Shown here piece by piece: positions 26,240 to 44,924 of a stretch of DNA of 64,000 bases. The first letter of the stretch is position 1. The number at the start of each line of letters is the position of its first letter. Under the pieces are notes generated by a model. The model did not search any database and was not told the DNA's origin. It saw only the letters and a list, made by a program, of their open reading frames with translations. Source of the stretch: an uncultured Planctomycetota bacterium (GTDB lineage Bacteria; Planctomycetota; Planctomycetia; Isosphaerales; Isosphaeraceae); NCBI GenBank assembly GCA_963737655.1, contig CAVTTN010000002.1, forward strand, positions 6,752,001 through 6,816,000, in the 5' to 3' direction. The position numbers and the translations under genes are program-made.

Positions 26240-26282
26240 TCGGGGATTCTGCGTCACTTTCGATGTCTACTTCATGTTAGGC
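26240..26282 (+). other. attI site (core GTTAGGC at 26276-26282; left limit approximate)
   Basis: First GTTRRRY after intI with no attC stem upstream; cassette 1 starts here. Confidence 0.8.
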
Positions 26283-26513
26283 GGCTCAGGAGTCGAAGCC
26301 TTCGGTCGTGCTCGTCGTCGGCCTCGCCGGTCGCGCCTCGGCTCGACGACGCCATCGGTCGGGCCCCTGGAGTCGGCCTCGGCGGTGGTGCGCGTCGTCG
26401 CCCTCGCCGGCCGCGCCCCCGAGGTCGGGCCCGTCGGCCGGCGCCCCCTTGCCAACGCCGTCGGTCCGTGCCAGGATCGTCGGTGTCGGCGCGTGGGGCG
26501 TCGCCGGGGCGCC

Positions 26514-26613
26514 GCCTAACCCGGCGCTGCAGCGGACCCGGCCCGCGGTCGACGATCACTCTCCTCTCAATCTCGCCGGGCGCGGGCCGGTCCGCTGAGC
26601 TTTGTCGTTAGGC
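26514..26613 (+). repeat. attC1 (intact)
   Basis: GCCTAAC...GTTAGGC with CAGCGGACC/GGTCCGCTG arms. Confidence 0.92.
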
Positions 26614-26978
26614 GGCTGACTCACGGGTCATTCGCAAGGTCTGATGGCAGCGTGCGACGTCGCCGGGGGCCCGGTCGGTCCCGTGCTTCGAGCGTCGTCG
26701 CCGCCGTGTCATCGCGCATCGCCGGTGGCCTCGGTCCTCACCGCGGTGGTGTCGTTGCCGTGGGGGCTCGCGTGCGTTCGTTGCCGCGGGGGTCTTGCGT
26801 CGTGCTCACGCGCCGCCTCCCCGTGAACTCTTCGCGCCGGCGGTTCGGCATCGGTTGATACTATGTGGGCATGATCATCGATCGGCCCGCATCCCCCCCG
26901 GCCCCCGCGACGACGGGGACGGCCCGATCCGGCTCGGCGGGGCTTGCGGTCGGGCGCCCCGCCTCCGACCCGTCGCCC

Positions 26979-28331
26979 TCACGACGGCGGCGACGGCGGC
27001 GACTTCGCCACCAGCTCGTAGCCCAGCGACCTCGCCTTGCGCCGCAGCGACCGCTCCTGCTTCGCGCGCACCTCGGCCTCGTACTCCGCCAGCGACCTCG
27101 ACACGTACTCCTCGCCGTGCCTGAGCATCCGGTACACCAGCCGCGACAGCTTGTGCGCCGTCGCCGTGATCGCCCCCCGGCCGCCGATCCGGCCCTTGAT
27201 CCGCCGGTAGAACTGGCCCGTCGCCGTCGCCGTCCGGCCCGCCGCCTGCGCCGCCATCCGCAGCGCCTGACCCACCCGGTTCTTGCCCTTGCGGGGCGTG
27301 CGACGCCGCTCGGTCTTGTTGCTCCGGTCGGTCCGCGGGCAGAGGCCCAGCCAGCTGGCGAAGTGCTTCTCGCTCGGGAACCGCCCCACGTCGCCGCCGA
27401 GCTCGGCCAGGATCACCGTCGCCGTCGTCGCGTCGATCCCCTCGATGGCCGTCAGGTCCACGCCGATCGCCCGGGCCAGCTTGGCCGGGGCGTCGAACCG
27501 CACGTCGTTGGCCTTGCGGCCGCGCTTGCGGGGCCTCGCCGCGATCGGCCGGCCTTCGGAGCGGTCGGGCAGGCGGTCCAGCTCCTCGGCGATCCGGGCG
27601 TCGCACTCGTCGACCTGGCGGTGGAGGTAGTGGTACAGGTCGGACGCCTGCCTCAGGGCGAACAGGTGCTCGGGCCGCCAGGTGCCCTCCAGGGCCCGGG
27701 CGATCTCCGCCTCGTCCCGGGCGCACCGCTCGTGCCGCAGCGCGGCCAGCTTCGTGGCGTCCCGCTCGCCGGCGAGGATCGCGGCGATGATCGCCGTGCC
27801 GGTGACGCCCGTGATGCTGCTGACGACCTCGGTCAGCTTCACATTCATCTGCTCCAAAGCCTTCTGCATGTGCTGGACGTGGTGCGAGGCGTACCGCACG
27901 AGCATCTGCCGCTGCCGCCAGTAGCCGCGCAGGGCCAGGACGGCCCCGGGCGGGCGGAAGGACGGGCGGAGCAGGCCGCACGAGTGGAGGCGCTGGAGCC
28001 ACTGGCAGTCGAGCCGGTCGGTCTTGGGCCGGGCGCCGCAGTGGCTGGCCTGGCTCGGCTCGATGAGGAAGACCTCGAAGCCGCGCGATTCGAGCAGCTC
28101 GAACAGGGGGATCCAGTAGACGCCGGTGGACTCCAGGACCACCGAGGTGACGCCCTCGGCCCGGAACCAATCGGCCAGGGCGTGGAGGTCGGCCGAGCAG
28201 GCGCCGAAGGTGCGGACCCGTCCGGGCCCGACGCAGGCGACGTGGTTGTCGGAGTGGACGTCGACGGCGGCGGCGTGGGGGTGGACGACCGGCAGGGACG
28301 CGTCGGGATCGGGGGGCGTGCGGCGACTCAT
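26979..28331 (-). CDS. IS110-family transposase
   Basis: DEDD residues (AVDVH, LESTGVYW, KTDRLD); IEGID, FPSEKHFASWLGLCP...S, TATAHKLSRLVY. Confidence 0.96.
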   Translation of the reverse strand: MSRRTPPDPDASLPVVHPHAAAVDVHSDNHVACVGPGRVRTFGACSADLHALADWFRAEGVTSVVLESTGVYWIPLFELLESRGFEVFLIEPSQASHCGARPKTDRLDCQWLQRLHSCGLLRPSFRPPGAVLALRGYWRQRQMLVRYASHHVQHMQKALEQMNVKLTEVVSSITGVTGTAIIAAILAGERDATKLAALRHERCARDEAEIARALEGTWRPEHLFALRQASDLYHYLHRQVDECDARIAEELDRLPDRSEGRPIAARPRKRGRKANDVRFDAPAKLARAIGVDLTAIEGIDATTATVILAELGGDVGRFPSEKHFASWLGLCPRTDRSNKTERRRTPRKGKNRVGQALRMAAQAAGRTATATGQFYRRIKGRIGGRGAITATAHKLSRLVYRMLRHGEEYVSRSLAEYEAEVRAKQERSLRRKARSLGYELVAKSPPSPPS

Positions 28332-28540
28332 GGCGAGGGCTCCGGCGGGTGGGGGGCCAAGCCGTCGCGGGCCGAGAGGGGGTCCGGGGACGAGGTAGTC
28401 TCCCCGACGGGAACGTCGCGGGGCCGTGTTGACACGGCGCCGCGGGTCACCAATGATGGGGCCACGGCCTCTCGGGCCAAGCTAACCTGCGGGCGGCGAG
28501 CACCAGGGAGATGACGGCCGGGAGGCCCGCGGCGGCGACG
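28332..28540 (-). ncRNA. Candidate bridge/seek RNA of IS copy 1 (limits approximate)
   Basis: Non-coding region 5' of transposase; target match CTAACCT 28482-28488 and GGCGGC 28492-28497; end match TCCCCG 28401-28406; minus-strand TACGAT at 28544-28549. Confidence 0.65.
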
Positions 28541-28602
28541 CCGATCGTACCGCGCCCCGGTTCACGTCCGTCGGGGAGCGGTCGCAGGCCGCGCGGAGAG
28601 TT

Positions 28603-28698
28603 AACCTTGCGCTGCAGCGGACCCGGCCACGGGCCGCGCCTTGTGTCCTTTCCGGCTCGTCGGTCCGTGGACCGGTCCGCTGAGCTTTGGCGTTAGGC
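28603..28698 (+). repeat. attC2 (part downstream of IS)
   Basis: AACC...GTTAGGC. Confidence 0.9.
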
Positions 28699-28908
28699 GG
28701 CTGACTCACGGGTCATTCGCGAGGCCCGTTCGCAGCGAAGCAAGCGACGTCGCCGGCGGCTCGGTCGGTCCCGTGCTTCGAGCGTCGTCACCGCCGTGTC
28801 GTCGAACATCGCCGCGGGCATCGGTCCTCACCGCCGCGGGTTCGTTGCCGTGGGGTCTCGCGTGCGTTCGTTGCCGTCGGGGTCTTGCGTCGTGCCTTCG
28901 CGCCGCCT

Positions 28909-29288
28909 CTTCGTGAACTCTTTGGCTGGGAACGGCCATCGACGCGCGACACTACCCCAACCCCAGGCTTTGTGGCCGGGCAGCGGCGAGGTCCGGGTAG
29001 CAAACCGACGGATTCAAGAGCGGCGGACGAGGCGCGGGCCGAGAGGGGAGTCGGTTACGTTTGCAGTCTCTTCGACGGGAACATCCCCGCGAGTCGGCTC
29101 GCGGGGCGTCGCCAATGACCGGATCACGACCTCTCGGGCCAGGCTAACCTACGGGCAGGGAGCACCAAGGTGGAGACGGCCGGGAGGCCCGCGCCACACT
29201 CAGGCTACGCCGCGCCGGGTCGGCGGGCAAGTCGTCCCCGACCCCCGTTCACGCCCCGTCGGGAGCGGACGAAGGCCGCAGGATGGTT
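28909..29288 (-). mobile_element. 380-bp non-autonomous IS110-like mini-element M1 in attC3
   Basis: CTTCGTGAACTC...GGATGGTT between GCCT and AAC; homologous to IS non-coding region. Confidence 0.92.
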
Positions 29289-29384
29289 AACCTTGCGCTG
29301 CAGCGGACCCGGCCACGGGCCGCGTTCTTTGTTCTTTCACGCTCACAGGTCCGTGGACCGGTCCGCTGAGCTTTGGCGTTAGGC
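29289..29384 (+). repeat. attC3 (downstream part)
   Basis: AACC...GTTAGGC. Confidence 0.9.
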
Positions 29385-29408
29385 GTCTTCGCAGCGGAGG
29401 GGCACGCG

Positions 29409-29855
29409 GTGGGGATCACTCCGGCGACGCGGAAGCCGGTCCACCTCCTGACGGCTGCCGATCTCGCGGCGTTCCCGGTCTGGGAGTACGCCGACGATGA
29501 GGAGTCCGTCGAGGGTCGGGATGAGACCTGGATCCGCCCTGTCCCCGTCGAAGTCATGCCTTCCCGGAGCTATGCCATCGTCGCGGCGGACTTCGAGGCT
29601 GCTTGCGGTCGTCGCTTCCAGGGGTATGTCTTCGTCTCCACGTTGGAGGGCGCCCCCGACGCATGCCAGGGCGTCATCTGGTCAGGTTCGTCGGGCCTCT
29701 TCGTCGCTAACCCGGAGGCTGTCGTCTACAAGGGATCGCGGGCTGAGTTGCTCGCAGGGCTGGGCGTCGGCGAGCATGAGTTGTTCCCCCTGTCCTTCCG
29801 TCCGCGCGTTCCGGTCGAGGGTATGCAAGGGCTCTGGTCAGGCGTGTTACCCTAA
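29409..29855 (+). CDS. Cassette 4 hypothetical protein
   Basis: GGAGG RBS, GTG start, fills cassette, stop just before attC. Confidence 0.75.
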   Translation: MGITPATRKPVHLLTAADLAAFPVWEYADDEESVEGRDETWIRPVPVEVMPSRSYAIVAADFEAACGRRFQGYVFVSTLEGAPDACQGVIWSGSSGLFVANPEAVVYKGSRAELLAGLGVGEHELFPLSFRPRVPVEGMQGLWSGVLP

Positions 29856-29856
29856 C

Positions 29857-29958
29857 GCCTAACCCGGCGCTGCAGCGGACCCCGGCCACGGGCCGCGCTT
29901 TCTCTTCTGTTGTAGCTCAGTGGTCCGTGGCCGGGTCCGCTGAGCTTGGTCGTTAGGC
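29857..29958 (+). repeat. attC4 (intact)
   Basis: GCCTAAC...GTTAGGC. Confidence 0.92.
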
Positions 29959-29977
29959 GTCAGGGGGCGATCTCGCC

Positions 29978-30421
29978 GTGAGCGTCAAAGTCCTCGCGCT
30001 CGACCTTGAGCGAACGCTGATCGATGACGCCCTGAGCGCCCGCCCACGGCCCGGCCTCCGCGATTTCCTCGCCTTCTGCGACGAGAGCTTCACGCGGGTC
30101 GCCATCTACACCACGGTCGAGGAGACCGACGCCCGCGAAGTCATTGATGAACTGGCCCGTGAGGGCCACGTCACTCAGGCCCTGCTAGCGCGGCTGGAGT
30201 ACATCGATTGGTCGGGCGAGCACAAGGATCTTGCGTATGTGCCCGGCGTCGCCGCGGAAGAGGTGGTGCTCGTCGATGACGACGCCGGTTGGATCCGGCC
30301 GGATCAGCGAGGGAGCTGGGTCGCCATCAAGCCCTGGGACGGCGGGCCGGACGGCGAGTTGCCCCGCATCAGGTCAATACTCCAGGCCCTGGTCGCCGGT
30401 GTGGCCGCGCCGGATGCCTAA
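29978..30421 (+). CDS. Cassette 5 HAD/NIF-type phosphatase-like protein
   Basis: LALDLERTL, RPGLRDFL, KDL, VVLVDD; stop is the attC TAA. Confidence 0.8.
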   Translation: MSVKVLALDLERTLIDDALSARPRPGLRDFLAFCDESFTRVAIYTTVEETDAREVIDELAREGHVTQALLARLEYIDWSGEHKDLAYVPGVAAEEVVLVDDDAGWIRPDQRGSWVAIKPWDGGPDGELPRIRSILQALVAGVAAPDA

Positions 30422-30515
30422 CCTCGCGCTGCAGCGGACCCGGCCCGCCGCGGCGTTTTCTGGTATCATCAAGCCTTCACTTGGCGGTCCGGTCCGCTGA
30501 GCTTTGGCGTTAGGC
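30416..30515 (+). repeat. attC5 (intact)
   Basis: GCCTAAC...GTTAGGC. Confidence 0.92.
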
Positions 30516-30557
30516 GGCTCGACCTCAACCGTGGACGACGTGCACGATGACCCCTCG

Positions 30558-30977
30558 ATGGAGATACGCTCCTGCCACGGCAGGCGTGGCCTCCGCTTCC
30601 ACAGCCGGCGCGGAGACTACTTCCACGCGAGCGTCGAGGGTGACGGCCCGAGTGCCTCCGTGCGGGTCTGGGGCTACACCGATTGCCACCTCCTCGTCGA
30701 CCTCTTCGAGTCGATCGCCCACGACTGGCGCGGCTGGCAAGGCGAGCGTTCCTGGTCCTCCATCGAGGATGAGTTCCGCATCGGTGCCACCACCGACAAG
30801 GCGGGCCATGTCACCCTCTCGGTTGTGCTTGCTCACTGTGACGGGATGGACGACTGGCGGCTCTCGGTGCCGGTCTTCACCGAGGCCGGACAGCTCGAAA
30901 AGATCGCCCGAGAGGTCGCTCGCTTCTTCTCCGGCGATGCGAGCGGCCCCCCGCCCGCAGATGCCGCCTCTTCGTGA
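30558..30977 (+). CDS. Cassette 6 protein, DUF6228-like
   Basis: LFESIAHDWRGWQGERSWSSIE...GHVTL; stop lies inside M2; family recalled, not searched. Confidence 0.7.
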   Translation: MEIRSCHGRRGLRFHSRRGDYFHASVEGDGPSASVRVWGYTDCHLLVDLFESIAHDWRGWQGERSWSSIEDEFRIGATTDKAGHVTLSVVLAHCDGMDDWRLSVPVFTEAGQLEKIAREVARFFSGDASGPPPADAASS

Positions 30978-31349
30978 ACTCTTTGGCTGGGAACGGCCAT
31001 CGACGCGCGACACTACCCCAACCCCAGGCTTTGTGGCCGGGCAGCGGCGAGGTCCGGGTAGCAAACCGACGGATTCAAGAGCGGCGGACGAGGCGCGGGC
31101 CGAGAGGGGAGTCGGTTACGTTTGCAGTCTCTTCGACGGGAACATCCCCGCGAGTCGGCTCGCGGGGCGTCGCCAATGACCGGATCACGACCTCTCGGGC
31201 CAGGCTAACCTACGGGCAGGGAGCACCAAGGTGGAGACGGCCGGGAGGCCCGCGCCACACTCAGGCTACGCCGCGCCGGGTCGGCGGGCAAGTCGTCCCC
31301 GACCCCCGTTCACGCCCCGTCGGGAGCGGACGAAGGCCGCAGGATGGTT
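30970..31349 (-). mobile_element. Mini-element M2 in attC6
   Basis: Same 380-bp sequence and insertion point. Confidence 0.92.
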
Positions 31350-31447
31350 AACCTCGCGCTGCAGCGGACCCCGGCCACGGGCCGCGCCTTCTGCGTCTTC
31401 GTAACTCGCTGGTCCGTGGCCGGGTCCGCTGAGCTTGGTCGTTAGGC
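31350..31447 (+). repeat. attC6 (downstream part)
   Basis: AACC...GTTAGGC. Confidence 0.9.
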
Positions 31448-31464
31448 GGCGGGAGGCTCCCGCG

Positions 31465-31785
31465 ATGGAATGGCCCGAACCGTGGTGCGATGTCGCCGAT
31501 CTCGGCCCCGACTTCGCGGCTACGTTCGAGCGCGTCCTGGTGCGCGAGGTCGCGAGGGGCCATCCGCTCCACGGCATCACGGTCGCAGCGGTCGGCAAGC
31601 GCGACGGCACCGACGACGTGCTATTTCGGCTGCTCGACGGCTCCGGGCGTGTTGCTGCCGTGCATCTGACCTGGACGCGCTCACCTCCCGAACGGCCACC
31701 CTGGCCGGCAACCGAACTATTCGCCAATTTCGAGGCGTTTGCCCGGCATCAGATGCAACCCGACCACGAGGAATACGTGACGTAG
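31465..31785 (+). CDS. Cassette 7 hypothetical protein
   Basis: GGAGG RBS; MEWPEPW...REVARGHPL...DDVLF...VHLTW. Confidence 0.78.
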   Translation: MEWPEPWCDVADLGPDFAATFERVLVREVARGHPLHGITVAAVGKRDGTDDVLFRLLDGSGRVAAVHLTWTRSPPERPPWPATELFANFEAFARHQMQPDHEEYVT

Positions 31786-31807
31786 CGGCGGGCACAGAAC
31801 GCCGCCT

Positions 31808-32187
31808 CTTCGTGAACTCTTTGGCTGGGAACGGCCATCGACGCGCGACACTACCCCAACCCCAGGCTTTGTGGCCGGGCAGCGGCGAGGTCCGGGTAGC
31901 AAACCGACGGATTCAAGAGCGGCGGACGAGGCGCGGGCCGAGAGGGGAGTCGGTTACGCTTGCAGTCTCTTCGACGGGAACATCCCCGCGAGTCGGCTCG
32001 CGGGGCGTCGCCAATGACCGGATCACGACCTCTCGGGCCAGGCTAACCTACGGGCAGGGAGCACCAAGGTGGAGACGGCCGGGAGGCCCGCGCCACACTC
32101 AGGCTACGCCGCGCCGGGTCGGCGGGCAAGTCGTCCCCGACCCCCGTTCACGCCCCGTCGGGAGCGGACGAAGGCCGCAGGATGGTT
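31808..32187 (-). mobile_element. Mini-element M3 in attC7
   Basis: Same 380-bp sequence (C allele). Confidence 0.92.
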
Positions 32188-32282
32188 AACCTCGCGCTGC
32201 AGCGGACCCGGCCCGCCGCGGCGATTTTTCTGCTATCATGGCCCTTCTCGGCGGGCCGGTCCGCTGAGCTTTGGCGTTAGGC
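32188..32282 (+). repeat. attC7 (downstream part)
   Basis: AACC...GTTAGGC. Confidence 0.9.
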
Positions 32283-32299
32283 GGCTCGGAGGTCTGCAA

Positions 32300-32566
32300 G
32301 TGCCACGGCTTCGGTTCACTCGTGCAGAAGCTGAGGCCGAAGCCATACGATTGGCCACAGAGTTCGTCGCCGCGATGCCTGGCACTGAGTCCGCCCGATG
32401 CATCGGTGCCTCCGCCGACCCCTTCACGTCGAGAAGTACAAGCAGCAAGCATCCCGTCATCTGGGCCGTTGGTTTCGTCTTTCACCCACCCGAAGTCGTG
32501 ATGGACGGCGGCGAGTTGTTTGTCGGCGTTAACATCGAAACCAAGGCCGTAACAGCACATGAATAA
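32300..32566 (+). CDS. Cassette 8 hypothetical protein
   Basis: GGAGG RBS, GTG start, fills cassette. Confidence 0.7.
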   Translation: MPRLRFTRAEAEAEAIRLATEFVAAMPGTESARCIGASADPFTSRSTSSKHPVIWAVGFVFHPPEVVMDGGELFVGVNIETKAVTAHE

Positions 32567-32583
32567 CCGCCGTGCGACCGCCT

Positions 32584-34367
32584 CCCCGTGAACTCTTCGC
32601 GCCGGCGGTTCGGCATCGGTTGATACTATGTGGGCATGATCATCGATCGGCCCGCATCCCCCCCGGCCCCCGCGACGACGGGGACGGCCCGATCCGGCTC
32701 GGCGGGGCTTGCGGTCGGGCGCCCCGCCTCCGACCCGTCGCCCTCACGACGGCGGCGACGGCGGCGACTTCGCCACCAGCTCGTAGCCCAGCGACCTCGC
32801 CTTGCGCCGCAGCGACCGCTCCTGCTTCGCGCGCACCTCGGCCTCGTACTCCGCCAGCGACCTCGACACGTACTCCTCGCCGTGCCTGAGCATCCGGTAC
32901 ACCAGCCGCGACAGCTTGTGCGCCGTCGCCGTGATCGCCCCCCGGCCGCCGATCCGGCCCTTGATCCGCCGGTAGAACTGGCCCGTCGCCGTCGCCGTCC
33001 GGCCCGCCGCCTGCGCCGCCATCCGCAGCGCCTGACCCACCCGGTTCTTGCCCTTGCGGGGCGTGCGACGCCGCTCGGTCTTGTTGCTCCGGTCGGTCCG
33101 CGGGCAGAGGCCCAGCCAGCTGGCGAAGTGCTTCTCGCTCGGGAACCGCCCCACGTCGCCGCCGAGCTCGGCCAGGATCACCGTCGCCGTCGTCGCGTCG
33201 ATCCCCTCGATGGCCGTCAGGTCCACGCCGATCGCCCGGGCCAGCTTGGCCGGGGCGTCGAACCGCACGTCGTTGGCCTTGCGGCCGCGCTTGCGGGGCC
33301 TCGCCGCGATCGGCCGGCCTTCGGAGCGGTCGGGCAGGCGGTCCAGCTCCTCGGCGATCCGGGCGTCGCACTCGTCGACCTGGCGGTGGAGGTAGTGGTA
33401 CAGGTCGGACGCCTGCCTCAGGGCGAACAGGTGCTCGGGCCGCCAGGTGCCCTCCAGGGCCCGGGCGATCTCCGCCTCGTCCCGGGCGCACCGCTCGTGC
33501 CGCAGCGCGGCCAGCTTCGTGGCGTCCCGCTCGCCGGCGAGGATCGCGGCGATGATCGCCGTGCCGGTGACGCCCGTGATGCTGCTGACGACCTCGGTCA
33601 GCTTCACATTCATCTGCTCCAAAGCCTTCTGCATGTGCTGGACGTGGTGCGAGGCGTACCGCACGAGCATCTGCCGCTGCCGCCAGTAGCCGCGCAGGGC
33701 CAGGACGGCCCCGGGCGGGCGGAAGGACGGGCGGAGCAGGCCGCACGAGTGGAGGCGCTGGAGCCACTGGCAGTCGAGCCGGTCGGTCTTGGGCCGGGCG
33801 CCGCAGTGGCTGGCCTGGCTCGGCTCGATGAGGAAGACCTCGAAGCCGCGCGATTCGAGCAGCTCGAACAGGGGGATCCAGTAGACGCCGGTGGACTCCA
33901 GGACCACCGAGGTGACGCCCTCGGCCCGGAACCAATCGGCCAGGGCGTGGAGGTCGGCCGAGCAGGCGCCGAAGGTGCGGACCCGTCCGGGCCCGACGCA
34001 GGCGACGTGGTTGTCGGAGTGGACGTCGACGGCGGCGGCGTGGGGGTGGACGACCGGCAGGGACGCGTCGGGATCGGGGGGCGTGCGGCGACTCATGGCG
34101 AGGGCTCCGGCGGGTGGGGGGCCAAGCCGTCGCGGGCCGAGAGGGGGTCCGGGGACGAGGTAGTCTCCCCGACGGGAACGTCGCGGGGCCGTGTTGACAC
34201 GGCGCCGCGGGTCACCAATGATGGGGCCACGGCCTCTCGGGCCAAGCTAACCTGCGGGCGGCGAGCACCAGGGAGATGACGGCCGGGAGGCCCGCGGCGG
34301 CGACGCCGATCGTACCGCGCCCCGGTTCACGTCCGTCGGGGAGCGGTCGCAGGCCGCGCGGAGAGTT
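32584..34367 (-). mobile_element. IS110-family element copy 2 (1784 bp) in attC8
   Basis: Same length and ends as copy 1, identical translation. Confidence 0.95.
32744..34096 (-). CDS. IS110-family transposase
   Basis: Identical protein to 26979-28331. Confidence 0.96.
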   Translation of the reverse strand: MSRRTPPDPDASLPVVHPHAAAVDVHSDNHVACVGPGRVRTFGACSADLHALADWFRAEGVTSVVLESTGVYWIPLFELLESRGFEVFLIEPSQASHCGARPKTDRLDCQWLQRLHSCGLLRPSFRPPGAVLALRGYWRQRQMLVRYASHHVQHMQKALEQMNVKLTEVVSSITGVTGTAIIAAILAGERDATKLAALRHERCARDEAEIARALEGTWRPEHLFALRQASDLYHYLHRQVDECDARIAEELDRLPDRSEGRPIAARPRKRGRKANDVRFDAPAKLARAIGVDLTAIEGIDATTATVILAELGGDVGRFPSEKHFASWLGLCPRTDRSNKTERRRTPRKGKNRVGQALRMAAQAAGRTATATGQFYRRIKGRIGGRGAITATAHKLSRLVYRMLRHGEEYVSRSLAEYEAEVRAKQERSLRRKARSLGYELVAKSPPSPPS

Positions 34368-34463
34368 AACCTTGCGCTGCAGCGGACCCGGCCCGCCGCG
34401 GCGGTTTCTGGTAACATCAAGCCTTCACTCGGCGGGCCGGTCCGCTGAGCTTGGTCGTTAGGC
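34368..34463 (+). repeat. attC8 (downstream part)
   Basis: AACC...GTTAGGC. Confidence 0.9.
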
Positions 34464-34654
34464 GGCTCGGCAACCGGTCGAGCCGGGGAGGGGGATGCGA
34501 TGCCCGTTCGGCCGTTCGCGCCTCGTCGCCGTGCCGGTCGTCGCGTCGCCGTGCCGGTCGTCGCGTCGCCGTCGGCCGCGCCCCGCGTCGTCGCCGCCCG
34601 GGGTGGCGCGCGTGGTCGCCGCCGGCGGTCGTGCCCCGCGCGGTCGCGCCGCCT

Positions 34655-35034
34655 CTTCGTGAACTCTTTGGCTGGGAACGGCCATCGACGCGCGACACTA
34701 CCCCAACCCCAGGCTTTGTGGCCGGGCAGCGGCGAGGTCCGGGTAGCAAACCGACGGATTCAAGAGCGGCGGACGAGGCGCGGGCCGAGAGGGGAGTCGG
34801 TTACGTTTGCAGTCTCTTCGACGGGAACATCCCCGCGAGTCGGCTCGCGGGGCGTCGCCAATGACCGGATCACGACCTCTCGGGCCAGGCTAACCTACGG
34901 GCAGGGAGCACCAAGGTGGAGACGGCCGGGAGGCCCGCGCCACACTCAGGCTACGCCGCGCCGGGTCGGCGGGCAAGTCGTCCCCGACCCCCGTTCACGC
35001 CCCGTCGGGAGCGGACGAAGGCCGCAGGATGGTT
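34655..35034 (-). mobile_element. Mini-element M4 in attC9
   Basis: Same 380-bp sequence (T allele). Confidence 0.92.
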
Positions 35035-35129
35035 AACCTCGCGCTGCAGCGGACCCCACCCGCCGCATCGGTTTCTGGTAGATTCAAGGTCGCTCGTGCG
35101 GGTGGGTCCGCTGAGCTTGGCCGTTAGGC
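35035..35129 (+). repeat. attC9 (downstream part)
   Basis: AACC...GTTAGGC. Confidence 0.9.
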
Positions 35130-35360
35130 GGCTCAGGAGTCGAAGCCTTCGGTCGTGCTCGTCGTCGGCCTCGCCGGTCGCGCCTCGGCTCGACGACGCC
35201 ATCGGTCGGGCCCCTGGAGTCGGCCTCGGCGGTGGTGCGCGTCGTCGCCCTCGCCGGCCGCGCCCCCGAGGTCGGGCCCGTCGGCCGGCGCCCCCTTGCC
35301 AACGCCGTCGGTCCGTGCCAGGATCGTCGGTGTCGGCGCGTGGGGCGTCGCCGGGGCGCC

Positions 35361-35460
35361 GCCTAACCCGGCGCTGCAGCGGACCCGGCCCGCGGTCGAC
35401 GATCACTCTCCTCTCAATCTCGCCGGGCGCGGGCCGGTCCGCTGAGCTTTGTCGTTAGGC
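35361..35460 (+). repeat. attC10 (intact, same as attC1)
   Basis: GCCTAAC...GTTAGGC. Confidence 0.92.
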
Positions 35461-35485
35461 GTATTAGGTCGATCGGAGGCTCTGG

Positions 35486-35896
35486 ATGCGCAGTAGAGTC
35501 CGCTATGTCAGTGGTTTGCTATCGCTGTCCGTGCTGATCTTTACCTCGTGCAGCCCGGAGCGACCGGCGGGCAGCGAGGCGGACGCGTGGCCATCCGACC
35601 AAGAGATCCTCGCCTACCTCGATGGCAAGACGATTTTCGAGCCCACGCCTGCCTCATCGGAGAAGGGAGGTAGTGTACCCCCGAAATCCTTCTTGCTGAA
35701 GGCAGGCAACATTTCCTCCTTGGAAGTGAAGAAGTCGGGGGTTGCTGTCTCGGGCGAGCCTTGGACGACGCCGATCCATTTCATCCTCGACGAGGGGGGG
35801 CGTAAATATGCCGTTGATGCCAGCGTCGATCACCGGAAAGTCGATAATAAACGGGCCTTCTTCGGGCTCAAGGCCGAGCGCATCGCTGAGCAGTGA
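35486..35896 (+). CDS. Cassette 11 putative lipoprotein
   Basis: GGAGG RBS; signal peptide ending LIFTSC. Confidence 0.78.
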   Translation: MRSRVRYVSGLLSLSVLIFTSCSPERPAGSEADAWPSDQEILAYLDGKTIFEPTPASSEKGGSVPPKSFLLKAGNISSLEVKKSGVAVSGEPWTTPIHFILDEGGRKYAVDASVDHRKVDNKRAFFGLKAERIAEQ

Positions 35897-35897
35897 C

Positions 35898-35998
35898 GCC
35901 TAACCTCGCGCTGCAGCGGACCCCGGCCACGGGCCGCGCTCCCTCTTCCCTCAAGCTCACTGGTCCGTGGCCGGGTCCGCTGAGCTTTGGCGTTAGGC
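35898..35998 (+). repeat. attC11 (intact)
   Basis: GCCTAAC...GTTAGGC. Confidence 0.92.
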
Positions 35999-36014
35999 GG
36001 CAGAGGAGATTGGG

Positions 36015-36545
36015 ATGACCACCTCACCCCGTGACCGCATGCGGATGATCGTCGGCGATATCACGACACTAGCCGTCGACGCCGTCGTCACGGCCGCCAA
36101 TGAGTCCCTCCTCGGCGGCGGGGGAGTCGATGGCGCCATCCACCGAGCCGCCGGCCCCGGGTTGCTCGACGAGTGCCGCACCCTGGGGATCTGCAACGAG
36201 GGCGAGGCGAAGATCAGCGGCGCCTATCGCCTGCCCGCCAAATACATCATCCATACCGTCGGGCCGGTCTGGGAGGGCGGCCACTACGATGAGGTCGGCA
36301 CCTTGCGGCGGTGCTACAGGGCCTGCCTGGAATTGGCGGAGGGGCGCGGCGTCGAGTCGATCGCCTTCCCATGCGTCGCCACGGGCGTCTACGAGTTCCC
36401 GAAGGACCTGGCCTGCGAGGTCGCCGTCGACGCCGTGCGCGAATGGCTGTCGGACCACGACCTCCCGAAGCAGGTGGTCTTCTGCTGCTTCGAGGAGTCG
36501 GATGCCGCGCTGTACCGTGACCGCCTCTCCGCGGCCATCGCCTAA
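36015..36545 (+). CDS. Cassette 12 macrodomain protein (YmdB-like ADP-ribose hydrolase)
   Basis: GDIT, AANESLLGGGGVDGAIHRAAG, IIHTVGP, SIAFPCVATGVY. Confidence 0.93.
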   Translation: MTTSPRDRMRMIVGDITTLAVDAVVTAANESLLGGGGVDGAIHRAAGPGLLDECRTLGICNEGEAKISGAYRLPAKYIIHTVGPVWEGGHYDEVGTLRRCYRACLELAEGRGVESIAFPCVATGVYEFPKDLACEVAVDAVREWLSDHDLPKQVVFCCFEESDAALYRDRLSAAIA

Positions 36546-36638
36546 CCTGGCGCTGCAGCGGACCCGGCCCGCCGCGGTAGTTTCCGTGCTATCATCGGTC
36601 TGCTCGGCGGGCCGGTCCGCTGAGCTTGGTCGTTAGGC
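36540..36638 (+). repeat. attC12 (intact)
   Basis: GCCTAAC...GTTAGGC. Confidence 0.92.
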
Positions 36639-36661
36639 TCCGAAGTCGGAAGGTGAGTGCG

Positions 36662-37528
36662 ATGCAACAAGCTTCACAACCAAACGCGATGCAGCAACCC
36701 ATAAAGGAGTTGCTCAAGGCGATAGCCGAACAGTCGAATCCGAAGCAACTCAGGGAAGCCTTATTCGAAAAGCGGTTGCTGGCGCGGGCCTTCGCCATCT
36801 GCCCGGATGCGGAACAAGCCGCGAAGTTAACGGACATCGTGTTCAAGCGACTCAGCGACTTGGATAAACAAGTTGAATTGGCACGGGCTGAATGGGACGA
36901 ATTCAAGAACAAGGCATGCACAGACTGGAAGAGGGTCCGAGCGGAGATCGAACACGAGAATCTGCTCATCAATCACCGTTTGGGATGGTTATTTACCTCA
37001 CAGATTTTCCTGCTCGGAGGTTTTGCGGCGGTCTTTCAGGCTTCTCTCAAGGAGAACCTACTCACCAGTTCGCTCCCAGTCCAGGTTGTATTATTAGCGA
37101 TATCAGTCGTCGCCGTTTCAATTTGTGCATTTGTGACTGCTTCTGTCGATGCAGCTCATAAACAGATTGAATTCTTGGAGAATTGGTGGTTCGCTCACTA
37201 CCTGAGCAAAAAACTGAAAATGATGGATATCTTCTGCGTCGAAAAATTGACAGATCACCCTCCAATCAACGGTATTTTTGATGAATGGTTGTACACTATC
37301 CTAAGTACGAAATGGATGCCAGTACCGATCGCTCTAGGCTGGCTCGCCTTGATGTCTGCAGTATTCTTTGAGAAGATTTTGAAGATCGAGCAGCCTGTTG
37401 TCCCAACGGTTGCCTCGACCACCGTCGTGTTTGGGCTGGGTGTCGGGCTCTTCTATTTTGCGACGTTGCGGCGCAAGCGTCCGAATCGCAAAGTTGGTTC
37501 CTGGAAAGAGCCCGCCGCCTCTTCGTGA
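36662..37528 (+). CDS. Cassette 13 low-GC membrane protein (about 4 TM helices)
   Basis: Helical N-terminus, EHENLLINHRLGWLFTSQ then hydrophobic segments; stop inside M5. Confidence 0.8.
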   Translation: MQQASQPNAMQQPIKELLKAIAEQSNPKQLREALFEKRLLARAFAICPDAEQAAKLTDIVFKRLSDLDKQVELARAEWDEFKNKACTDWKRVRAEIEHENLLINHRLGWLFTSQIFLLGGFAAVFQASLKENLLTSSLPVQVVLLAISVVAVSICAFVTASVDAAHKQIEFLENWWFAHYLSKKLKMMDIFCVEKLTDHPPINGIFDEWLYTILSTKWMPVPIALGWLALMSAVFFEKILKIEQPVVPTVASTTVVFGLGVGLFYFATLRRKRPNRKVGSWKEPAASS

Positions 37529-37900
37529 ACTCTTTGGCTGGGAACGGCCATCGACGCGCGACACTACCCCAACCCCAGGCTTTGTGGCCGGGCAGCGGCG
37601 AGGTCCGGGTAGCAAACCGACGGATTCAAGAGCGGCGGACGAGGCGCGGGCCGAGAGGGGAGTCGGTTACGCTTGCAGTCTCTTCGACGGGAACATCCCC
37701 GCGAGTCGGCTCGCGGGGCGTCGCCAATGACCGGATCACGACCTCTCGGGCCAGGCTAACCTACGGGCAGGGAGCACCAAGGTGGAGACGGCCGGGAGGC
37801 CCGCGCCACACTCAGGCTACGCCGCGCCGGGTCGGCGGGCAAGTCGTCCCCGACCCCCGTTCACGCCCCGTCGGGAGCGGACGAAGGCCGCAGGATGGTT
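37521..37900 (-). mobile_element. Mini-element M5 in attC13
   Basis: Same 380-bp sequence (C allele). Confidence 0.92.
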
Positions 37901-37997
37901 AACCTCGCGCTGCAGCGGACCCCGGCCACGGGTTACGTTTTCTCTTCTCCCAAGCTCACCGGTCCGTGGCCGGGTCCGCTGAGCTTGGTCGTTAGGC
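37901..37997 (+). repeat. attC13 (downstream part)
   Basis: AACC...GTTAGGC. Confidence 0.9.
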
Positions 37998-38021
37998 GGC
38001 TTTCCCCGGTGAGGCCGACTC

Positions 38022-38420
38022 GTGCGCATCAGCATCCCACGCCTCCCGGTCGCGCTCGTCATCCGAGCGGATCGGCGGCCCCGACGGCCGATCAAGCCGA
38101 GGTTCACCCTTCGTGGCATGATGCTTGCCGTGCTCGTCGTCGGGCTGGTGCTCGCGCTGTCGCTCCACGCGGCGAGGTTGCAACGGGCTGGCAACGACCA
38201 TGCGGCGCGAGCGGTCCTGCTCGCCCCGGGCGCCGGCACGATGCCTCCGGTCGTGGGCTGGCACAACGCGAGGGCGAACGCCCTCTTCGCGGCCGCCTGG
38301 CGCTGGCACATGGCGGTCACCACGCTCGTTGTCAGCTCGGCCGCCTTGGGGTGTATCGCGGCCATCGGCCGGTGCGTCGCTTCTGCGCCCCGGCCCTACG
38401 GTGGGTCGGAAGGCGCCTGA
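38022..38420 (+). CDS. Cassette 14 small membrane protein
   Basis: PRFTLRGMMLAVLVVGLVLAL; stop in attC. Confidence 0.65.
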   Translation: MRISIPRLPVALVIRADRRPRRPIKPRFTLRGMMLAVLVVGLVLALSLHAARLQRAGNDHAARAVLLAPGAGTMPPVVGWHNARANALFAAAWRWHMAVTTLVVSSAALGCIAAIGRCVASAPRPYGGSEGA

Positions 38421-38512
38421 CCTCGCGCTGCAGCGGACCCCGCACCGCCGCGGCGCTTTCTCTGCTACCATGTCGTTGTTCGGCGGTGCGGGTCCGCTCA
38501 GCTTGGGCGTTA
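38415..38512 (+). repeat. attC14 (GCCTGAC variant; R' box split by MITE)
   Basis: Conserved arms; GTTA then insertion then TAGGC. Confidence 0.8.
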
Positions 38513-38658
38513 TTGCCCTTCAGGTTGTCCGGTTCCGGACGATCCCCGGGTGGCCGGGGGCTCGTCCGCGAGACCCCGGTCCCGCGGGGTCGGCCGACCG
38601 GGGTCTCGCCGGCGAGCCCCCGGCCACCCGGACAGGAACCCAACAATCTGAAGGTCAA
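38513..38658. mobile_element. 146-bp palindromic MITE with TA duplication
   Basis: TTGCCCTTCAGGTTGT...ACAATCTGAAGGTCAA flanked by TA at 38511-38512 and 38659-38660. Confidence 0.8.
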
Positions 38659-38685
38659 TAGGCACACTCACACACGGCATCACGC

Positions 38686-39147
38686 ATGAGCACAGGAAAC
38701 ACAAAAGCCGTCAGAGATTCCGAGACGTGCTGGGAACTTGATGAAGAGTTCATGTTGTATGCCGCGACCATTCCAGACCCGCCGAAGGCGGGTGCGGCCA
38801 CGACGGTGAGGCTCACGCATCGGAGCTCCTGCGGCCCGTTCGACTTCGCTGAATTTTTCGTTCGTGTAGGAAACTCGGCCAAGTCGAACGCCCCGCGCGA
38901 TTCGGATTCGACGACAGATTGGATTCAGGCGCGATTGGTCGAGGAGTTGGTCACCGTCGCTGAGGAAGAGATGCATCGTTCAGAGGCGCAAGAGCCTTTC
39001 GATGACGAGACACTTTGGATCGGGACTTACGAGGCCGACTTAATCTTTCCCGTCGGGCAGAGTTCCATCGAGATCAAGATCGTCAGCCAAGAGCCAGAGA
39101 TGCTCGGGTCATTCGTGCTGACGGACTGGGAGGTGACGGTTGGATGA
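38686..39147 (+). CDS. Cassette 15 acidic hypothetical protein
   Basis: Fills cassette. Confidence 0.75.
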   Translation: MSTGNTKAVRDSETCWELDEEFMLYAATIPDPPKAGAATTVRLTHRSSCGPFDFAEFFVRVGNSAKSNAPRDSDSTTDWIQARLVEELVTVAEEEMHRSEAQEPFDDETLWIGTYEADLIFPVGQSSIEIKIVSQEPEMLGSFVLTDWEVTVG

Positions 39148-39158
39148 GCCGTGCGCCT

Positions 39159-39538
39159 CTTCGTGAACTCTTTGGCTGGGAACGGCCATCGACGCGCGAC
39201 ACTACCCCAACCCCAGGCTTTGTGGCCGGGCAGCGGCGAGGTCCGGGTAGCAAACCGACGGATTCAAGAGCGGCGGACGAGGCGCGGGCCGAGAGGGGAG
39301 TCGGTTACGCTTGCAGTCTCTTCGACGGGAACATCCCCGCGAGTCGGCTCGCGGGGCGTCGCCAATGACCGGATCACGACCTCTCGGGCCAGGCTAACCT
39401 ACGGGCAGGGAGCACCAAGGTGGAGACGGCCGGGAGGCCCGCGCCACACTCAGGCTACGCCGCGCCGGGTCGGCGGGCAAGTCGTCCCCGACCCCCGTTC
39501 ACGCCCCGTCGGGAGCGGACGAAGGCCGCAGGATGGTT
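39159..39538 (-). mobile_element. Mini-element M6 in attC15
   Basis: Same 380-bp sequence (C allele). Confidence 0.92.
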
Positions 39539-39634
39539 AACCTCGCGCTGCAGCGGACCCCACACCGCCGCGGCGCTTTTTCTGCTATCATGCCTGTCTC
39601 GGCGGTGCGGGTCCGCTGAGCTTGGTCGTTAGGC
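39539..39634 (+). repeat. attC15 (downstream part)
   Basis: AACC...GTTAGGC. Confidence 0.9.
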
Positions 39635-39644
39635 GGCTCTCCCT

Positions 39645-39953
39645 TTGGGCGTCGAGGATCATACGTTCTCTGTGCGAATCGTCTCCATCGAGCGACTCCG
39701 CCTGCGGAATGGGTCGTCGCTGCTCCTCCTTGGCCTCGACATGACGTACCTTCAAGCGGCGCGGTCTGGTTGTCCGGGTGCCAAGGCACGCGTCGTATCC
39801 GGCGATGCCGTCACGCCAGTCCGGGGCACCCTGGCCTTTCAGCAACCACTCGACAGCCTCGCGACCGTGAGCGTATCTTCACCTGAGTCGATCATCGTCG
39901 CTGTCGGCGACACGTTCGAGTTCGAGCGAGCCGACCCCGCCGCCTCCCCGTGA
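39645..39953 (+). CDS. Cassette 16 hypothetical protein
   Basis: Fills cassette; stop inside IS end; weak start. Confidence 0.5.
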   Translation: MGVEDHTFSVRIVSIERLRLRNGSSLLLLGLDMTYLQAARSGCPGAKARVVSGDAVTPVRGTLAFQQPLDSLATVSVSSPESIIVAVGDTFEFERADPAASP

Positions 39954-40593
39954 ACTCTTCGCGCCGGCGGTTCGGCATCGGTTGATACTATGTGGGCGTG
40001 ATCATCGATCGGCCCGCATCCCCCCCGGCCCCCGCGACGACGGGGACGGCCCGATCCGGCTCGGCGGGGCTTGCGGTCGGGCGCCCCGCCTCCGACCCGT
40101 CGCCCTCACGACGGCGGCGACGGCGGCGACTTCGCCACCAGCTCGTAGCCCAGCGACCTCGCCTTGCGCCGCAGCGAACGCTCCTGCTTCCGCCTCACCT
40201 CCGCCTCGTACTCCGCCAGCGACCTCGACACGTACTCCTCGCCGTGCCTGAGCAGCCGGTACACCAGCCGCGACAGCTTGTGCGCCGTCGCCGTGATCGC
40301 CCCGCGGCCGCCGATCCGGCCCTTGATCCGCCGGGGGGTCAAAAAGGGGACGGGGGGTCAAAAAGGGGACGGAGCGAATAAATTCAGCTTTTTGCATTTT
40401 GCCGCGTCTCATCCAGGCCGAACTTATTCGCTCCGTCCCCTTTTCGGCCCCAAGCTAACCTGCGGGCGGCGAGCACCAGGGAAGGGACGGCCGGGAGGCT
40501 CGCGACGGCGTGCCCCAGCGTATCGCGCCCGGTGGTCGGGGCCACCCCCGGTTCACGTCCGTCGGGGAGCGGTCGGAGACGGCGCGGAGAGTT
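39946..40593 (-). mobile_element. Internally deleted, diverged IS110 copy 3 in attC16
   Basis: Both ends and transposase 3' end (40106-40332) kept; middle replaced by 40333-40450. Confidence 0.9.
40333..40444. repeat. REP/MITE-like inverted repeat at the deletion junction
   Basis: AAAAGGGGACGGAGCGAATAA 40361-40381 and exact complement 40424-40444; 19-nt tandem 40333-40370. Confidence 0.8.
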
Positions 40594-40689
40594 AACCTGG
40601 CGCGGCAGCGGACCCCGCACCACCGCGACGCCTCTTGTGTTATCATGGCCCACTCGGCGGAGCGGGTCCGCTGAGCTTTGGTATCAGGC
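40594..40689 (+). repeat. attC16 (degenerate R', ATCAGGC)
   Basis: Arms conserved, GTT mutated. Confidence 0.75.
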
Positions 40690-40715
40690 GGCTCGCACTT
40701 CCGAGGGGCACACCG

Positions 40716-41066
40716 ATGACCTTGCCTGGTCGCCTCCGCCCTCGTTGGACCATCGGGCGCTGCATGATCGGCGTCGCGGTCTCAGCCCTTGCGCTCTCCG
40801 GGCCGTTGCAATTCCTCCTCGTGGCCCTGACTGTCTCCTTCATGCTCCTCATGAGGCTCGGCTTTTCCTGGGTGAAGGCGCTGATGGCGGTCGAAGTGAT
40901 GGGCGCCATCGCGATCGCCCTCGGACTGCCGTTCTTCGTCACCGCCCTACGCTCCAATTGTGGCATGCCCGCGTCTGGGCCGACTAACCTCGCGGTGCGG
41001 GGGACCCGTCCCGCCGTTGTGCGTTCTCCGCTCTCATGGCGATCGCTCGGCGGGCCGGTCCGCTGA
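40716..41066 (+). CDS. Cassette 17 small membrane protein (reads into attC)
   Basis: GAGG RBS; PRWTIGRCMIGVAVSAL and hydrophobic helices. Confidence 0.6.
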   Translation: MTLPGRLRPRWTIGRCMIGVAVSALALSGPLQFLLVALTVSFMLLMRLGFSWVKALMAVEVMGAIAIALGLPFFVTALRSNCGMPASGPTNLAVRGTRPAVVRSPLSWRSLGGPVR

Positions 41067-41081
41067 GCGTTCGCGTTCGGC
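40982..41081 (+). repeat. attC17 (degenerate)
   Basis: GACTAAC...GGTCCGCTGAGC...GTTCGGC. Confidence 0.7.
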
Positions 41082-41096
41082 CCCACGGAGGCGGTG

Positions 41097-41432
41097 ATGC
41101 AGAAGGCTGGTGTCTGGCTTCTGACGATCATCGGCCTGGTCGGGCTGTTGGTGGCCCTCAGCTTCGAAGGGCATGGCGCGGGCGCCTCGACCCCTCAGCC
41201 GGGAGGACCGGTGCACGTGGCGCCGGTCGTCTGGCCAGTCGGCCTGCCCGATACCTGGCTGGAGTGGGAGAGGCCCGGATACCTGTTGGGGCAGGAGGGC
41301 CGCCCCCATGTCCACTTCGCCGGCGTGTATGTCCTCAGATGGTCGTTCGGAATCCTCGTCGCGAGCGCCTGCGCCCTGGGCTGCGCGTCGATTCTGGCTC
41401 GCCGCGGGCAATCCGGCCGGATCGGGGGCTAA
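41097..41432 (+). CDS. Cassette 18 small membrane protein
   Basis: GGAGG RBS; two TM helices; stop is attC TAA. Confidence 0.7.
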   Translation: MQKAGVWLLTIIGLVGLLVALSFEGHGAGASTPQPGGPVHVAPVVWPVGLPDTWLEWERPGYLLGQEGRPHVHFAGVYVLRWSFGILVASACALGCASILARRGQSGRIGG

Positions 41433-41526
41433 CCTCGCGCTGCTGCGGACCCCGCACCGCCGCGCCCCCTTCTGCGAGATCTTCGTCGATTCGGCGGTGA
41501 GGGTCCGATGAGCTTTGTCGTTAGGC
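41427..41526 (+). repeat. attC18 (slightly degenerate)
   Basis: GGCTAAC...GTTAGGC. Confidence 0.8.
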
Positions 41527-41558
41527 GGCGGGGGGATCCACCCAGGGGGGAACCGAGG

Positions 41559-41966
41559 GTGGTGCGGCGATCCTGGCGGAGTTTGCGGGCGATTCTGGTC
41601 GCCATAGCCGTCGCGGCCGTCGCGATGAACGGCCTGCGTGAACTTCCCACGTTGCGAGATGGCTATCTCCTTCGGCAAGGGGCGGGTCGTGCCCGGCGTG
41701 ATGTCGAGTTGATCGGCGCGGCCTCGGGTCTCGATTCCGCCGCCGGTCGCAGGGCAGTGCTCAATGCCCATCAGGCCCAAGTCCGAGCCAATGCGTTCTG
41801 GCGGGAGAATCTTCCCGGACTGGCCGTCCTGGCGTGCGGCGCGGCGGCCGGTCTCCGGCTCCTGGGGCTGGCCTTCGGGGGCCTCTCGCCAGCCTTCGAC
41901 AGGCGAATCGGCGCGGTCGAACATCGCCGGAGTCCACCGCCTGACCTCTCGCGACCGCTCTCGTAA
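41559..41966 (+). CDS. Cassette 19 small membrane protein
   Basis: SLRAILVAIAVAAVAM and second hydrophobic helix. Confidence 0.55.
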   Translation: MVRRSWRSLRAILVAIAVAAVAMNGLRELPTLRDGYLLRQGAGRARRDVELIGAASGLDSAAGRRAVLNAHQAQVRANAFWRENLPGLAVLACGAAAGLRLLGLAFGGLSPAFDRRIGAVEHRRSPPPDLSRPLS

Positions 41967-42015
41967 AATCGAACGTCGCTCGGGCGGGTGGGTCCGCTGA
42001 GCCTGGTCGTTAGGC
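41939..42015 (+). repeat. attC19 (left arm partly deleted)
   Basis: GCCTGAC...GGTCCGCTGAGCC..GTTAGGC. Confidence 0.7.

Positions 42016-43166: not shown

Positions 43167-44924
<1,758 letters not shown>

Follow-up and report, generated by a model that had tools for sequence, protein, structure and literature searches.

An IS110-family insertion sequence and a 380-bp derivative occupy attC sites of a planctomycete integron, probably through RNA-guided targeting

The window analysed here is a stretch of 64,000 nucleotides from an uncultured planctomycete genome of 7.6 Mb and 69% GC (G000:C2:6752001-6816000; coordinates without prefix are window positions, L-numbers denote relative loci, and G002 and G003 other genomes). 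It contains a complete integron made of an intI gene, an attI-like box and 19 attC sites, nine of which are interrupted by an insertion sequence (IS) of the IS110 family or by a miniature inverted-repeat transposable element (MITE) of 380 bp. On the sequence evidence, it is very probable that an IS110-family bridge recombinase, possibly of an ISPpu9-like lineage, and the non-autonomous MITE parasitise attC sites through RNA-DNA pairing. All 36 element copies in the genome (28 MITE and 8 IS) sit in the R'' box of an attC site at CT^AACCT, where the caret marks the insertion point, and both junctions are precise in every copy, with one base shared at the junctions.

In the window, the IS or a deleted copy of it occupies attC2, attC8 and attC16, and the MITE occupies attC3, attC6, attC7, attC9, attC13 and attC15. 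All nine are inserted between the T and the AAC of the R'' box and lie antisense to the array:

26819..28602, minus strand: IS copy 1, 1784 bp, in the attC2 R'' box at CCGCCT^AACCT, antisense to the array
28909..29288, minus strand: MITE copy 1, 380 bp, without transposase, in attC3
30970..31349, minus strand: MITE copy 2, in attC6
31808..32187, minus strand: MITE copy 3, in attC7
32584..34367, minus strand: IS copy 2, identical to copy 1, in attC8, with its transposase gene (tnp) at 32744-34096
34655..35034, minus strand: MITE copy 4, in attC9
37521..37900, minus strand: MITE copy 5, in attC13
39159..39538, minus strand: MITE copy 6, in attC15, left flank GCGCCT
39946..40593, minus strand: internally deleted IS copy, 648 bp, both ends present, in attC16

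A preliminary description of this array had reported AACCT on the right of all nine occupied sites, CCGCCT on the left of eight of them and GCGCCT on the left of the remaining one (39159, MITE copy 6). These motifs were recovered exactly from the 19 attC sites, as were those given for the empty sites, namely AACCC in attC1, attC10 and attC4, the left sides ATGCCT, ACGCCT and TCGCCT in attC5, attC11 and attC12, TGAC in attC14 and attC19, GACT in attC17 and GGCT in attC18. Every empty site of the window thus deviates from the 11-mer CCGCCT^AACCT, as claimed: perfect 11-mers are occupied at 8/8 sites versus 1/11 for the others (hypergeometric p ~1e-4, hand-calculated). The empty sites are as follows:

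26276..26613, plus strand: first cassette with attC1 (AACCC, empty); second copy at 35123-35460
29861..29958, plus strand: attC4, empty, ACGCCT^AACCC
30420..30515, plus strand: attC5, empty, ATGCCT^AACCT; same 11-mer occupied at C2:1678866
35902..35998, plus strand: attC11, empty, ACGCCT^AACCT; same cassette with a MITE at G000:C2:1971445
36544..36638, plus strand: attC12, empty, TCGCCT^AACCT; such sites are occupied in 0/3 cases
38419..38512, plus strand: attC14, empty, GCGCCT^GACCT
40986..41080, plus strand: attC17, empty, CCGACT^AACCT; same 11-mer occupied at C2:1981514
41431..41526, plus strand: attC18, empty, GGGGCT^AACCT
41940..42015, plus strand: attC19, empty, internally shortened, CCGCCT^GACCT

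Occupancy was then counted genome-wide. A hidden Markov model (HMM) built from 18 attC sequences of the window detected 87 sites, to which one truncated occupied site was added. Five of these 88 candidates, all empty, were removed because their 5' end was unaligned, leaving 83 sites; a site at C2:4298600 ending in ATGGTT, which may be an element remnant, was scored as empty. Among attC sites carrying CT^AACCT, 36 are occupied and 17 empty, versus none occupied of the 30 lacking this 7-mer (p 1e-10). Merging duplicate cassettes gave 35 occupied and 15 empty versus 0/22 (p 6e-9). The right side is decisive even when the left side is held at CCGCCT: with duplicates merged, 21/23 sites followed by AACCT are occupied versus 0/8 with any other right side (p 6e-6). 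Efficient insertion into AACCC had been named in the preliminary description as one observation that would refute its reading; none of the 14 AACCC sites holds an element (a single cassette accounts for 10 of them), nor do any of the 6 GACCT sites. On the other arm of the same hairpin, the R' boxes reading, on the opposite strand, CCGCCTAAC plus other bases are occupied in 0/48 cases, so that a hairpin with a 9-base match is insufficient for insertion. Targeting by primary sequence therefore stands for the seven bases of CT^AACCT, for which the idea that a guide sets occupancy is right.

It does not stand for the full 11-mer. The left flanks of the 36 occupied sites are CCGCCT (22), ACGCCT (5), GCGCCT (4), CGGCCT (2), ATGCCT (1), CCGACT (1) and TCTCCT (1), and the left-side rule is cleaner in the window than genome-wide. 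A stricter model, in which insertion requires a perfect 11-bp match and no matching site is left empty, describes 18 of the 19 window sites, and the genome-wide count of the 11-mer, which the preliminary description had proposed as a check, comes out partly in its favour: among CT^AACCT attC sites, 22/24 perfect ones are occupied versus 14/29 with an imperfect left side (p 1e-3). We nevertheless regard this model as improbable. Its strict form is refuted by the 14/36 occupied sites that deviate on the left (13/27 outside the window), by two empty perfect attC sites and by the cassette of attC11, which exists in both states. Three intact copies of the 11-mer are present in the genome, none of them occupied: two in good attC sites (C2:285051 and 4849127) and one in an attI-like box. 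Element ends in G002 and G003 are also flanked by ACGCCT, CGGCCT and CCCCCT, although these are mostly fragments (8 of 18 regions are element ends, none with both junctions). The preliminary description had also proposed that the matching sites of the array are saturated. For the best class of site the window array is close to full, yet it is not saturated, because perfect sites are found empty and one cassette exists both empty and occupied; the 11-mers of attC5, attC11 and attC17 are likewise occupied elsewhere.

The same counts bear on a reading by descent, in which a small number of insertions were spread by cassette duplication or by recombination between repeats. Some exchange of this kind is indicated, as two cassette bodies occur twice with a MITE in each, and two identical attC sites lie behind different bodies. 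Yet 35 distinct occupied cassettes remain once duplicates are merged, a number of distinct flanks that largely refutes descent; the duplicated cassette pairs hold different MITE haplotypes, the junctions are precise throughout, and the guides described below track their targets across unrelated genomes. We consider descent highly improbable as the source of the pattern. The attC sequences found behind different bodies are C2:1679246 and 1976982, and C2:1680138 and window 36544, with MITEs in both cases, which suggests that recombination between MITE copies reshuffles cassette bodies and attC sites.

For the favoured reading, RNA-guided insertion by the IS110-family recombinase, the relevant features are the following:

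26979..28331, minus strand: DEDD transposase/recombinase of IS copy 1, 450 aa (PF01548 and PF02371; NF033542 253 bits, cut-off 140)
28366..28545, minus strand: predicted IS bridge RNA, upstream of tnp, with a target loop followed by a donor loop (scaffold kept in relatives; consensus fold)
28482..28488, minus strand: IS left target guide AGGTTAG, predicted to pair with CTAACCT (covariation)
28506..28514, minus strand: candidate IS right-target-guide segment TCATCTCCC, which matches the CCGCC flank imperfectly (register tests, uncertain by one base)
28400..28406, minus strand: predicted IS left donor guide CGGGGAG, which matches the right end of the IS
28429..28457, plus strand: sigma70-like TTGACA-17-AATGAT, antisense to the bridge RNA (10/12 consensus matches, 0 in shuffles)
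29034..29207, minus strand: MITE copy of the predicted bridge RNA, with target guide at 29144-29150 and right-guide segment TCTCCACCT at 29168-29176
29068-29074, minus strand: predicted MITE donor guide CGAAGAG, matching the MITE's own end
29202..29230, minus strand: possible MITE promoter TTGCCC-17-TAGCCT ahead of the RNA (found by eye, then as a pattern in 25/28 MITEs)

The region upstream of tnp and the MITE have a common scaffold with 76% column identity. An HMM of this scaffold matches in 96/103 loci, own copies included, and the scaffold lies upstream of tnp in relatives. The consensus fold of 20 sequences comprises two loops, each interrupted by a hairpin, with two-sided changes in 9/27 pairs. 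A variable 6-mer follows a conserved CCCG-N motif, and the flank that it matches lies 84 to 136 bases upstream. Among 83 parsed loci, this 6-mer matches the element's own flank in 35/43 distinct elements versus 14/1746 for foreign 6-mers. In a held-out set of 80 metagenome loci, of which 62 were parsed and 51 were distinct with enough DNA, the own flank is matched in 30/51 cases versus 16/2482 for foreign guides, these counts overstating significance in both sets since the relatives are not independent (30 and 33 distinct guides are involved). The seventh guide base equals the second core base in 37/38 held-out loci. In the element studied here, the left guide AGGTTAG covers exactly the seven invariant target bases. 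A left guide extending beyond position +5 was rejected, as the RNA mismatches positions +6 to +10 and +6 varies among targets.

Alternatively, the protein could read the target and the guide-like match be incidental. The right guide indeed matches poorly, and the role of the RNA is predicted here from sequence. However, 22 of the 30 distinct left guides match their flank exactly at the expected distance, which is almost never seen with foreign guides, a result repeated in the held-out loci; moreover, published IS110 and IS1111 members require the RNA. We hold the protein reading to be the least probable of those considered.

Under the RNA-guided reading, the right guide would be a 9-nt segment located 5' of the left guide, whose complementarity to the right flank is about twice the expectation. 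At register 8, the segment is CCACC in the MITE and TCTCC in the IS, where the flank usually has CCGCC (4/5 matches for the MITE; 3/5 plus a wobble for the IS), and the sole TCTCCT target equals the IS right-guide segment. A partial match of the right guide at this register would explain the soft left flank. The position that fits poorly is a G in nearly all targets, and the matching G is present in the relatives L129 and L130. A diverged MITE subfamily with 25-55 differences (G000:C2:1975838, 1979325 and 4850316) keeps both guides and the CCACCT segment. We also considered the CCGCC beside the left guide as right guide and rejected it: it overlaps a GCCCG scaffold kept with unrelated targets, and reads CTGCC in the MITE. 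The assignment of the right guide is less sure than that of the left. The RNA is probably made in the direction of tnp, as suggested by a pairing geometry like that of IS621 and by promoter-like motifs. The MITE motif scored under threshold in the promoter scan that detected the sigma70-like site of the IS; the latter, a strong predicted site, points into the downstream cassettes.

Several observations weigh against the RNA-guided reading or parts of it. There is no exact guide-flank match in 8/43 and 21/51 loci of the two sets; L130 mismatches its own guide by 2 bases and L115 is one base short. The consensus fold is weak (-14.6 kcal/mol, with a covariation term of -1.5). For the right guide, the best register is 7 in the first set (19 types) and 8 in the held-out set (34 types), and the fit is poor at a position that is G in 35/36 targets. 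No consistent placement was found for a right donor guide. Finally, CTAACCT outside attC and outside the elements is occupied in 0/38 cases versus 36/53 in attC, a result not expected from sequence alone.

This last count favours a variant to which we give somewhat less than an even chance: the guide sets the address, and the attC hairpin, or the extrusion of it, acts as a second determinant with a strong enhancing effect on insertion. The attC stem lies on the side equivalent to the 5' stem-loop of ISPpu10, an element reported to lose over half its activity without this stem-loop (10.64898/2026.03.19.712850). When the sites are stratified by left mismatches, the difference between attC and non-attC sites persists (p ~4e-4, hand-calculated). 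However, no more than one left mismatch is found in just 5/38 of the non-attC sites, several of which resemble decayed att sites; 31/38 lie in long stop-free frames, a weak proxy for coding at 69% GC, so that the same pattern could result from selection against the disruption of genes. Furthermore, L091, which is 76% identical and has the same left guide, interrupts a frame of 310 codons at CGGCCT^AACCT, where no hairpin is found (z +0.7); we take the interrupted gene to be TPR-like (tetratricopeptide repeat). A contribution of structure is compatible with RNA-guided targeting as a matter of degree, and a fair reading is that the sequence is necessary and the hairpin optional.

The donor guide, which follows a second CCCG motif, equals the right end of the element in 29/30 held-out loci, a weak test as only three common variants exist. 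In the genome studied here, the IS donor guide CGGGGA goes with the end CACGGGG-A, and the MITE donor guide CGAAGA with the end CACGAAG-A. In L001, where a MITE lies in tandem behind the IS, TGAAGA is found in both donor guide and end, and a G003 MITE shows the same guide-end pairing. As its donor guide matches its own end, the MITE keeps a full, self-addressed predicted bridge RNA. A bolder proposal, which we put forward tentatively and think rather unlikely as a whole, is that the MITE is a guide-RNA parasite in its own right: with a complete second bridge RNA, a donor guide for its own end and a target loop that fits attC better than that of the IS, it would borrow the IS recombinase, outnumber the IS by 28 to 8 and lock more than 40% of cassettes through R-box unpairing, while a cassette escaping by a single base (AACCC) would stay mobile and reach 10 copies. 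If true, integron and RNA-guided element would be engaged in an arms race, and the clade concerned would pair an upstream RNA with an IS1111-type guide order.

The mechanism that we propose under RNA-guided targeting is as follows. The element would excise or copy out as a circle, the MITE probably borrowing the IS recombinase. The left target guide AGGUUAG would pair fully with CT^AACCT, and full pairing would be required; the right guide would match the CCGCC flank only partly, left-flank variants being used at about half the rate. Sites would thus fill with high but incomplete probability, and the hairpin, not strictly required, may raise efficiency. Insertion would remove outer R-box pairs and probably lower attC recombination. 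Consistently, insertion replaces the four outer R'' bases, and of the pairs with R', mostly 4 before insertion, 2 usually remain for the MITE (21/24) and 1 for the IS (6/7); the R helix is lost in both occupied sites folded and retained in both empty ones. The AAC triplet is called essential in PMC7439510; because it is kept after insertion, attC activity may be reduced rather than lost. Where the stop codon of a cassette is the TAA of the R'' box, the element provides a TGA two codons later. The most-copied cassette is the attC1 type, with 10 near-identical copies in 4 arrays and none occupied; its spread fits an escape of AACCC from insertion, as a single case. This cassette is of about 330 bp with no clear gene, and is sometimes in tandem.

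The element belongs to the IS110 family in the broad sense: it encodes the DEDD_Tnp_IS110 and Transposase_20 domains with NF033542 above cut-off, has a specific target, a fixed orientation and no long target duplication, and contains a non-coding region with predicted target and donor guides. As in the IS110 group, the longer non-coding region is upstream of tnp (271 bp, against 160 bp downstream); the guide order differs from that group, the right-guide segment being 5' of the left guide, a distinction that depends on the inferred direction of the RNA. The element may belong to an ISPpu9-like clade: the AG target core and the family scaffold are present, and the transposase resembles that of ISPpu9 as judged by eye. 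The match of ISKpn2 to the 450-aa transposase covers 42 residues only. Terminal inverted repeats were rejected as a family trait: the IS has a repeat matching at 11/12 positions, one arm lying directly at the left end and the other 7 bp away from the right end, but neither the MITE nor relatives such as L006 retain it.

Close relatives in attC are L082, L128, L129, L131 and L134 (78-84% for the last four). Four G003 MITEs are also in attC, one with a base missing from the site. The distant L152, L170 and L179, with the same left guide and another right segment, share a different, non-attC flank. A further distant relative (L076:1-120, 51%) has the left guide TTGTTAG and a flank that ends in GAGTTGTTAGGC, similar to the R' box of attC; the clade may have acquired attC targeting on more than one occasion.

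The known systems are compared here as described in the accessible parts of their publications. The targeting of attC by RNA-guided IS1111 elements and the MITE of ISPpu9 are already published. The IS1111-attC group comprises ISKpn4, ISPst6, ISPa21 and ISPa25, and the seekRNAs of ISKpn4 and ISPst6 match the attC target (PMC11187229). Like them, the element here is an IS110-superfamily DEDD recombinase inserted antisense to the array at one attC end, with an RNA-matched target near the 5' end and the top-strand guide 5' of the bottom-strand guide. It acts in the manner of the IS1111-attC elements yet lacks two features that define them: a guide RNA downstream of tnp (upstream here), and subterminal inverted repeats of 11-13 bp, spaced 7 bp from the left end and 3 bp from the right. 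Their enzyme is also shorter (~330-350 aa against 450 aa), and by eye the ISKpn4 and ISPa25 sequences lack motifs that ISPpu9 shares with the element. We found no report of an attC-targeting MITE in the IS1111-attC group in the literature searched.

There is also a resemblance to ISPpu9 and MITEPpu9/ssr9 of Pseudomonas putida (PMC12288879), which likewise combine an IS110-group element with an upstream non-coding region, an AG core and insertion at palindromic repeats; their MITE, too, can follow the IS in tandem, as in L001, and the leader holds an antisense promoter. Some motifs of the transposase, such as ESTGVYWIP, appear common by eye. However, ISPpu9 targets repetitive extragenic palindromic (REP) sequences instead of attC, Ssr9 is described as a regulator and hitchhiker and not as a second bridge RNA with a donor guide of its own, and the left junction here is AA, leaving only one core base in common. 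The system looks like an ISPpu9-type IS and its MITE redirected to attC, and is a convergent variant. The IS621 bridge RNA (PMC11208160) and the ISEc21 seekRNA share the upstream RNA, the target loop followed by the donor loop, and the long left and short right guides, but have the left guide before the right and a CT core; this difference in guide order is judged from text descriptions, and other bridge RNA folds (e.g. ISAzs32) may already show the order seen here. ISPpu10 is likewise an IS110 element at a structured repeat with a site defined by pairing (10.64898/2026.03.19.712850), but its right guide is strict and its left guide tolerant at distal positions, the reverse of the natural data here. 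Group IIC-attC introns (PMC3001079) are also attC parasites, antisense to the array and with outward promoters; they are retroelements with an unrelated mechanism. In the literature searched, which left most subscription papers and ISfinder outside, we came across neither an IS110-group element that targets attC and has its RNA upstream nor a MITE at attC that carries a bridge RNA of its own.

The genome thus offers an in-genome specificity table for this clade of bridge recombinases, with 83 near-identical natural targets of which 36 are used, a strict 7-nt left guide and a soft right one. Targeting of attC would arise here in a lineage whose layout differs from that of the IS1111-attC group. 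One recombinase with two natural predicted guide RNAs and two donors is suited to testing orthogonal donors and guide sharing. The system also makes testable the effect of such insertions on cassette mobility and expression, called under-studied in PMC11616780.

The integron itself is identified by its RYYYAAC and GTTRRRY boxes, a bottom-strand hairpin with an extrahelical base and a nearby intI. The hairpin was as expected in both empty attC sites folded (z -4.6 and -5.5), and intI is the sole full-length integron integrase match in the genome:

25126..26082, minus strand: intI integron integrase, 318 aa, intact (TIGR02249 475 bits, cut-off 265)
26255..26284, plus strand: attI-like region with a GTTAGGC crossover box from 26276, assigned from its place between intI and the first cassette

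Nine more attC clusters are present in G000:C2 without a nearby full intI, resembling attC clusters that have no integron-integrase (CALIN), near 284-291, 820, 1673-1682, 1970-1987, 4297-4299, 4673-4675, 4849-4851, 5877-5893 and 6862 kb; some are preceded by an attI-like sequence resembling window 26255-26284. The cassettes at 36015-36545 and 29978-30421 encode, respectively, a Macro-domain protein (PF01661) and a NIF-like phosphatase (PF03031), and the other ten array open reading frames (ORFs) tried had no Pfam match. The Rfam search gave 0 matches in the window.

A second IS110-family element, with a 33% identical protein, is found at G000:C2:4847050-4848545, with a part at C2:286889-287611 and derivatives of about 90 bp at C2:4298432-4298508 and C2:1121397-1121473. 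All sit at GTTAG boxes of attI-like or R' sites, from which two IS110 lineages appear to target the two ends of the integron's sites. At its deletion point (40335-40410), the deleted IS copy has a short foreign stretch with a doubled GGGGGGTCAAAAAGGGGACGG motif, and a similar motif, possibly the footprint of another mobile element, interrupts the attC at C2:5886043. A long inverted repeat (CTTCAGGTTGTCCGG ... CCGGACAGGAACCCAACAATCTGAAG) after attC14, at 38510-38660, resembles another small inserted element. Downstream of the array, a large ORF contains Gly/Met-rich low-complexity repeats of GGMGGM type (44127-44563).

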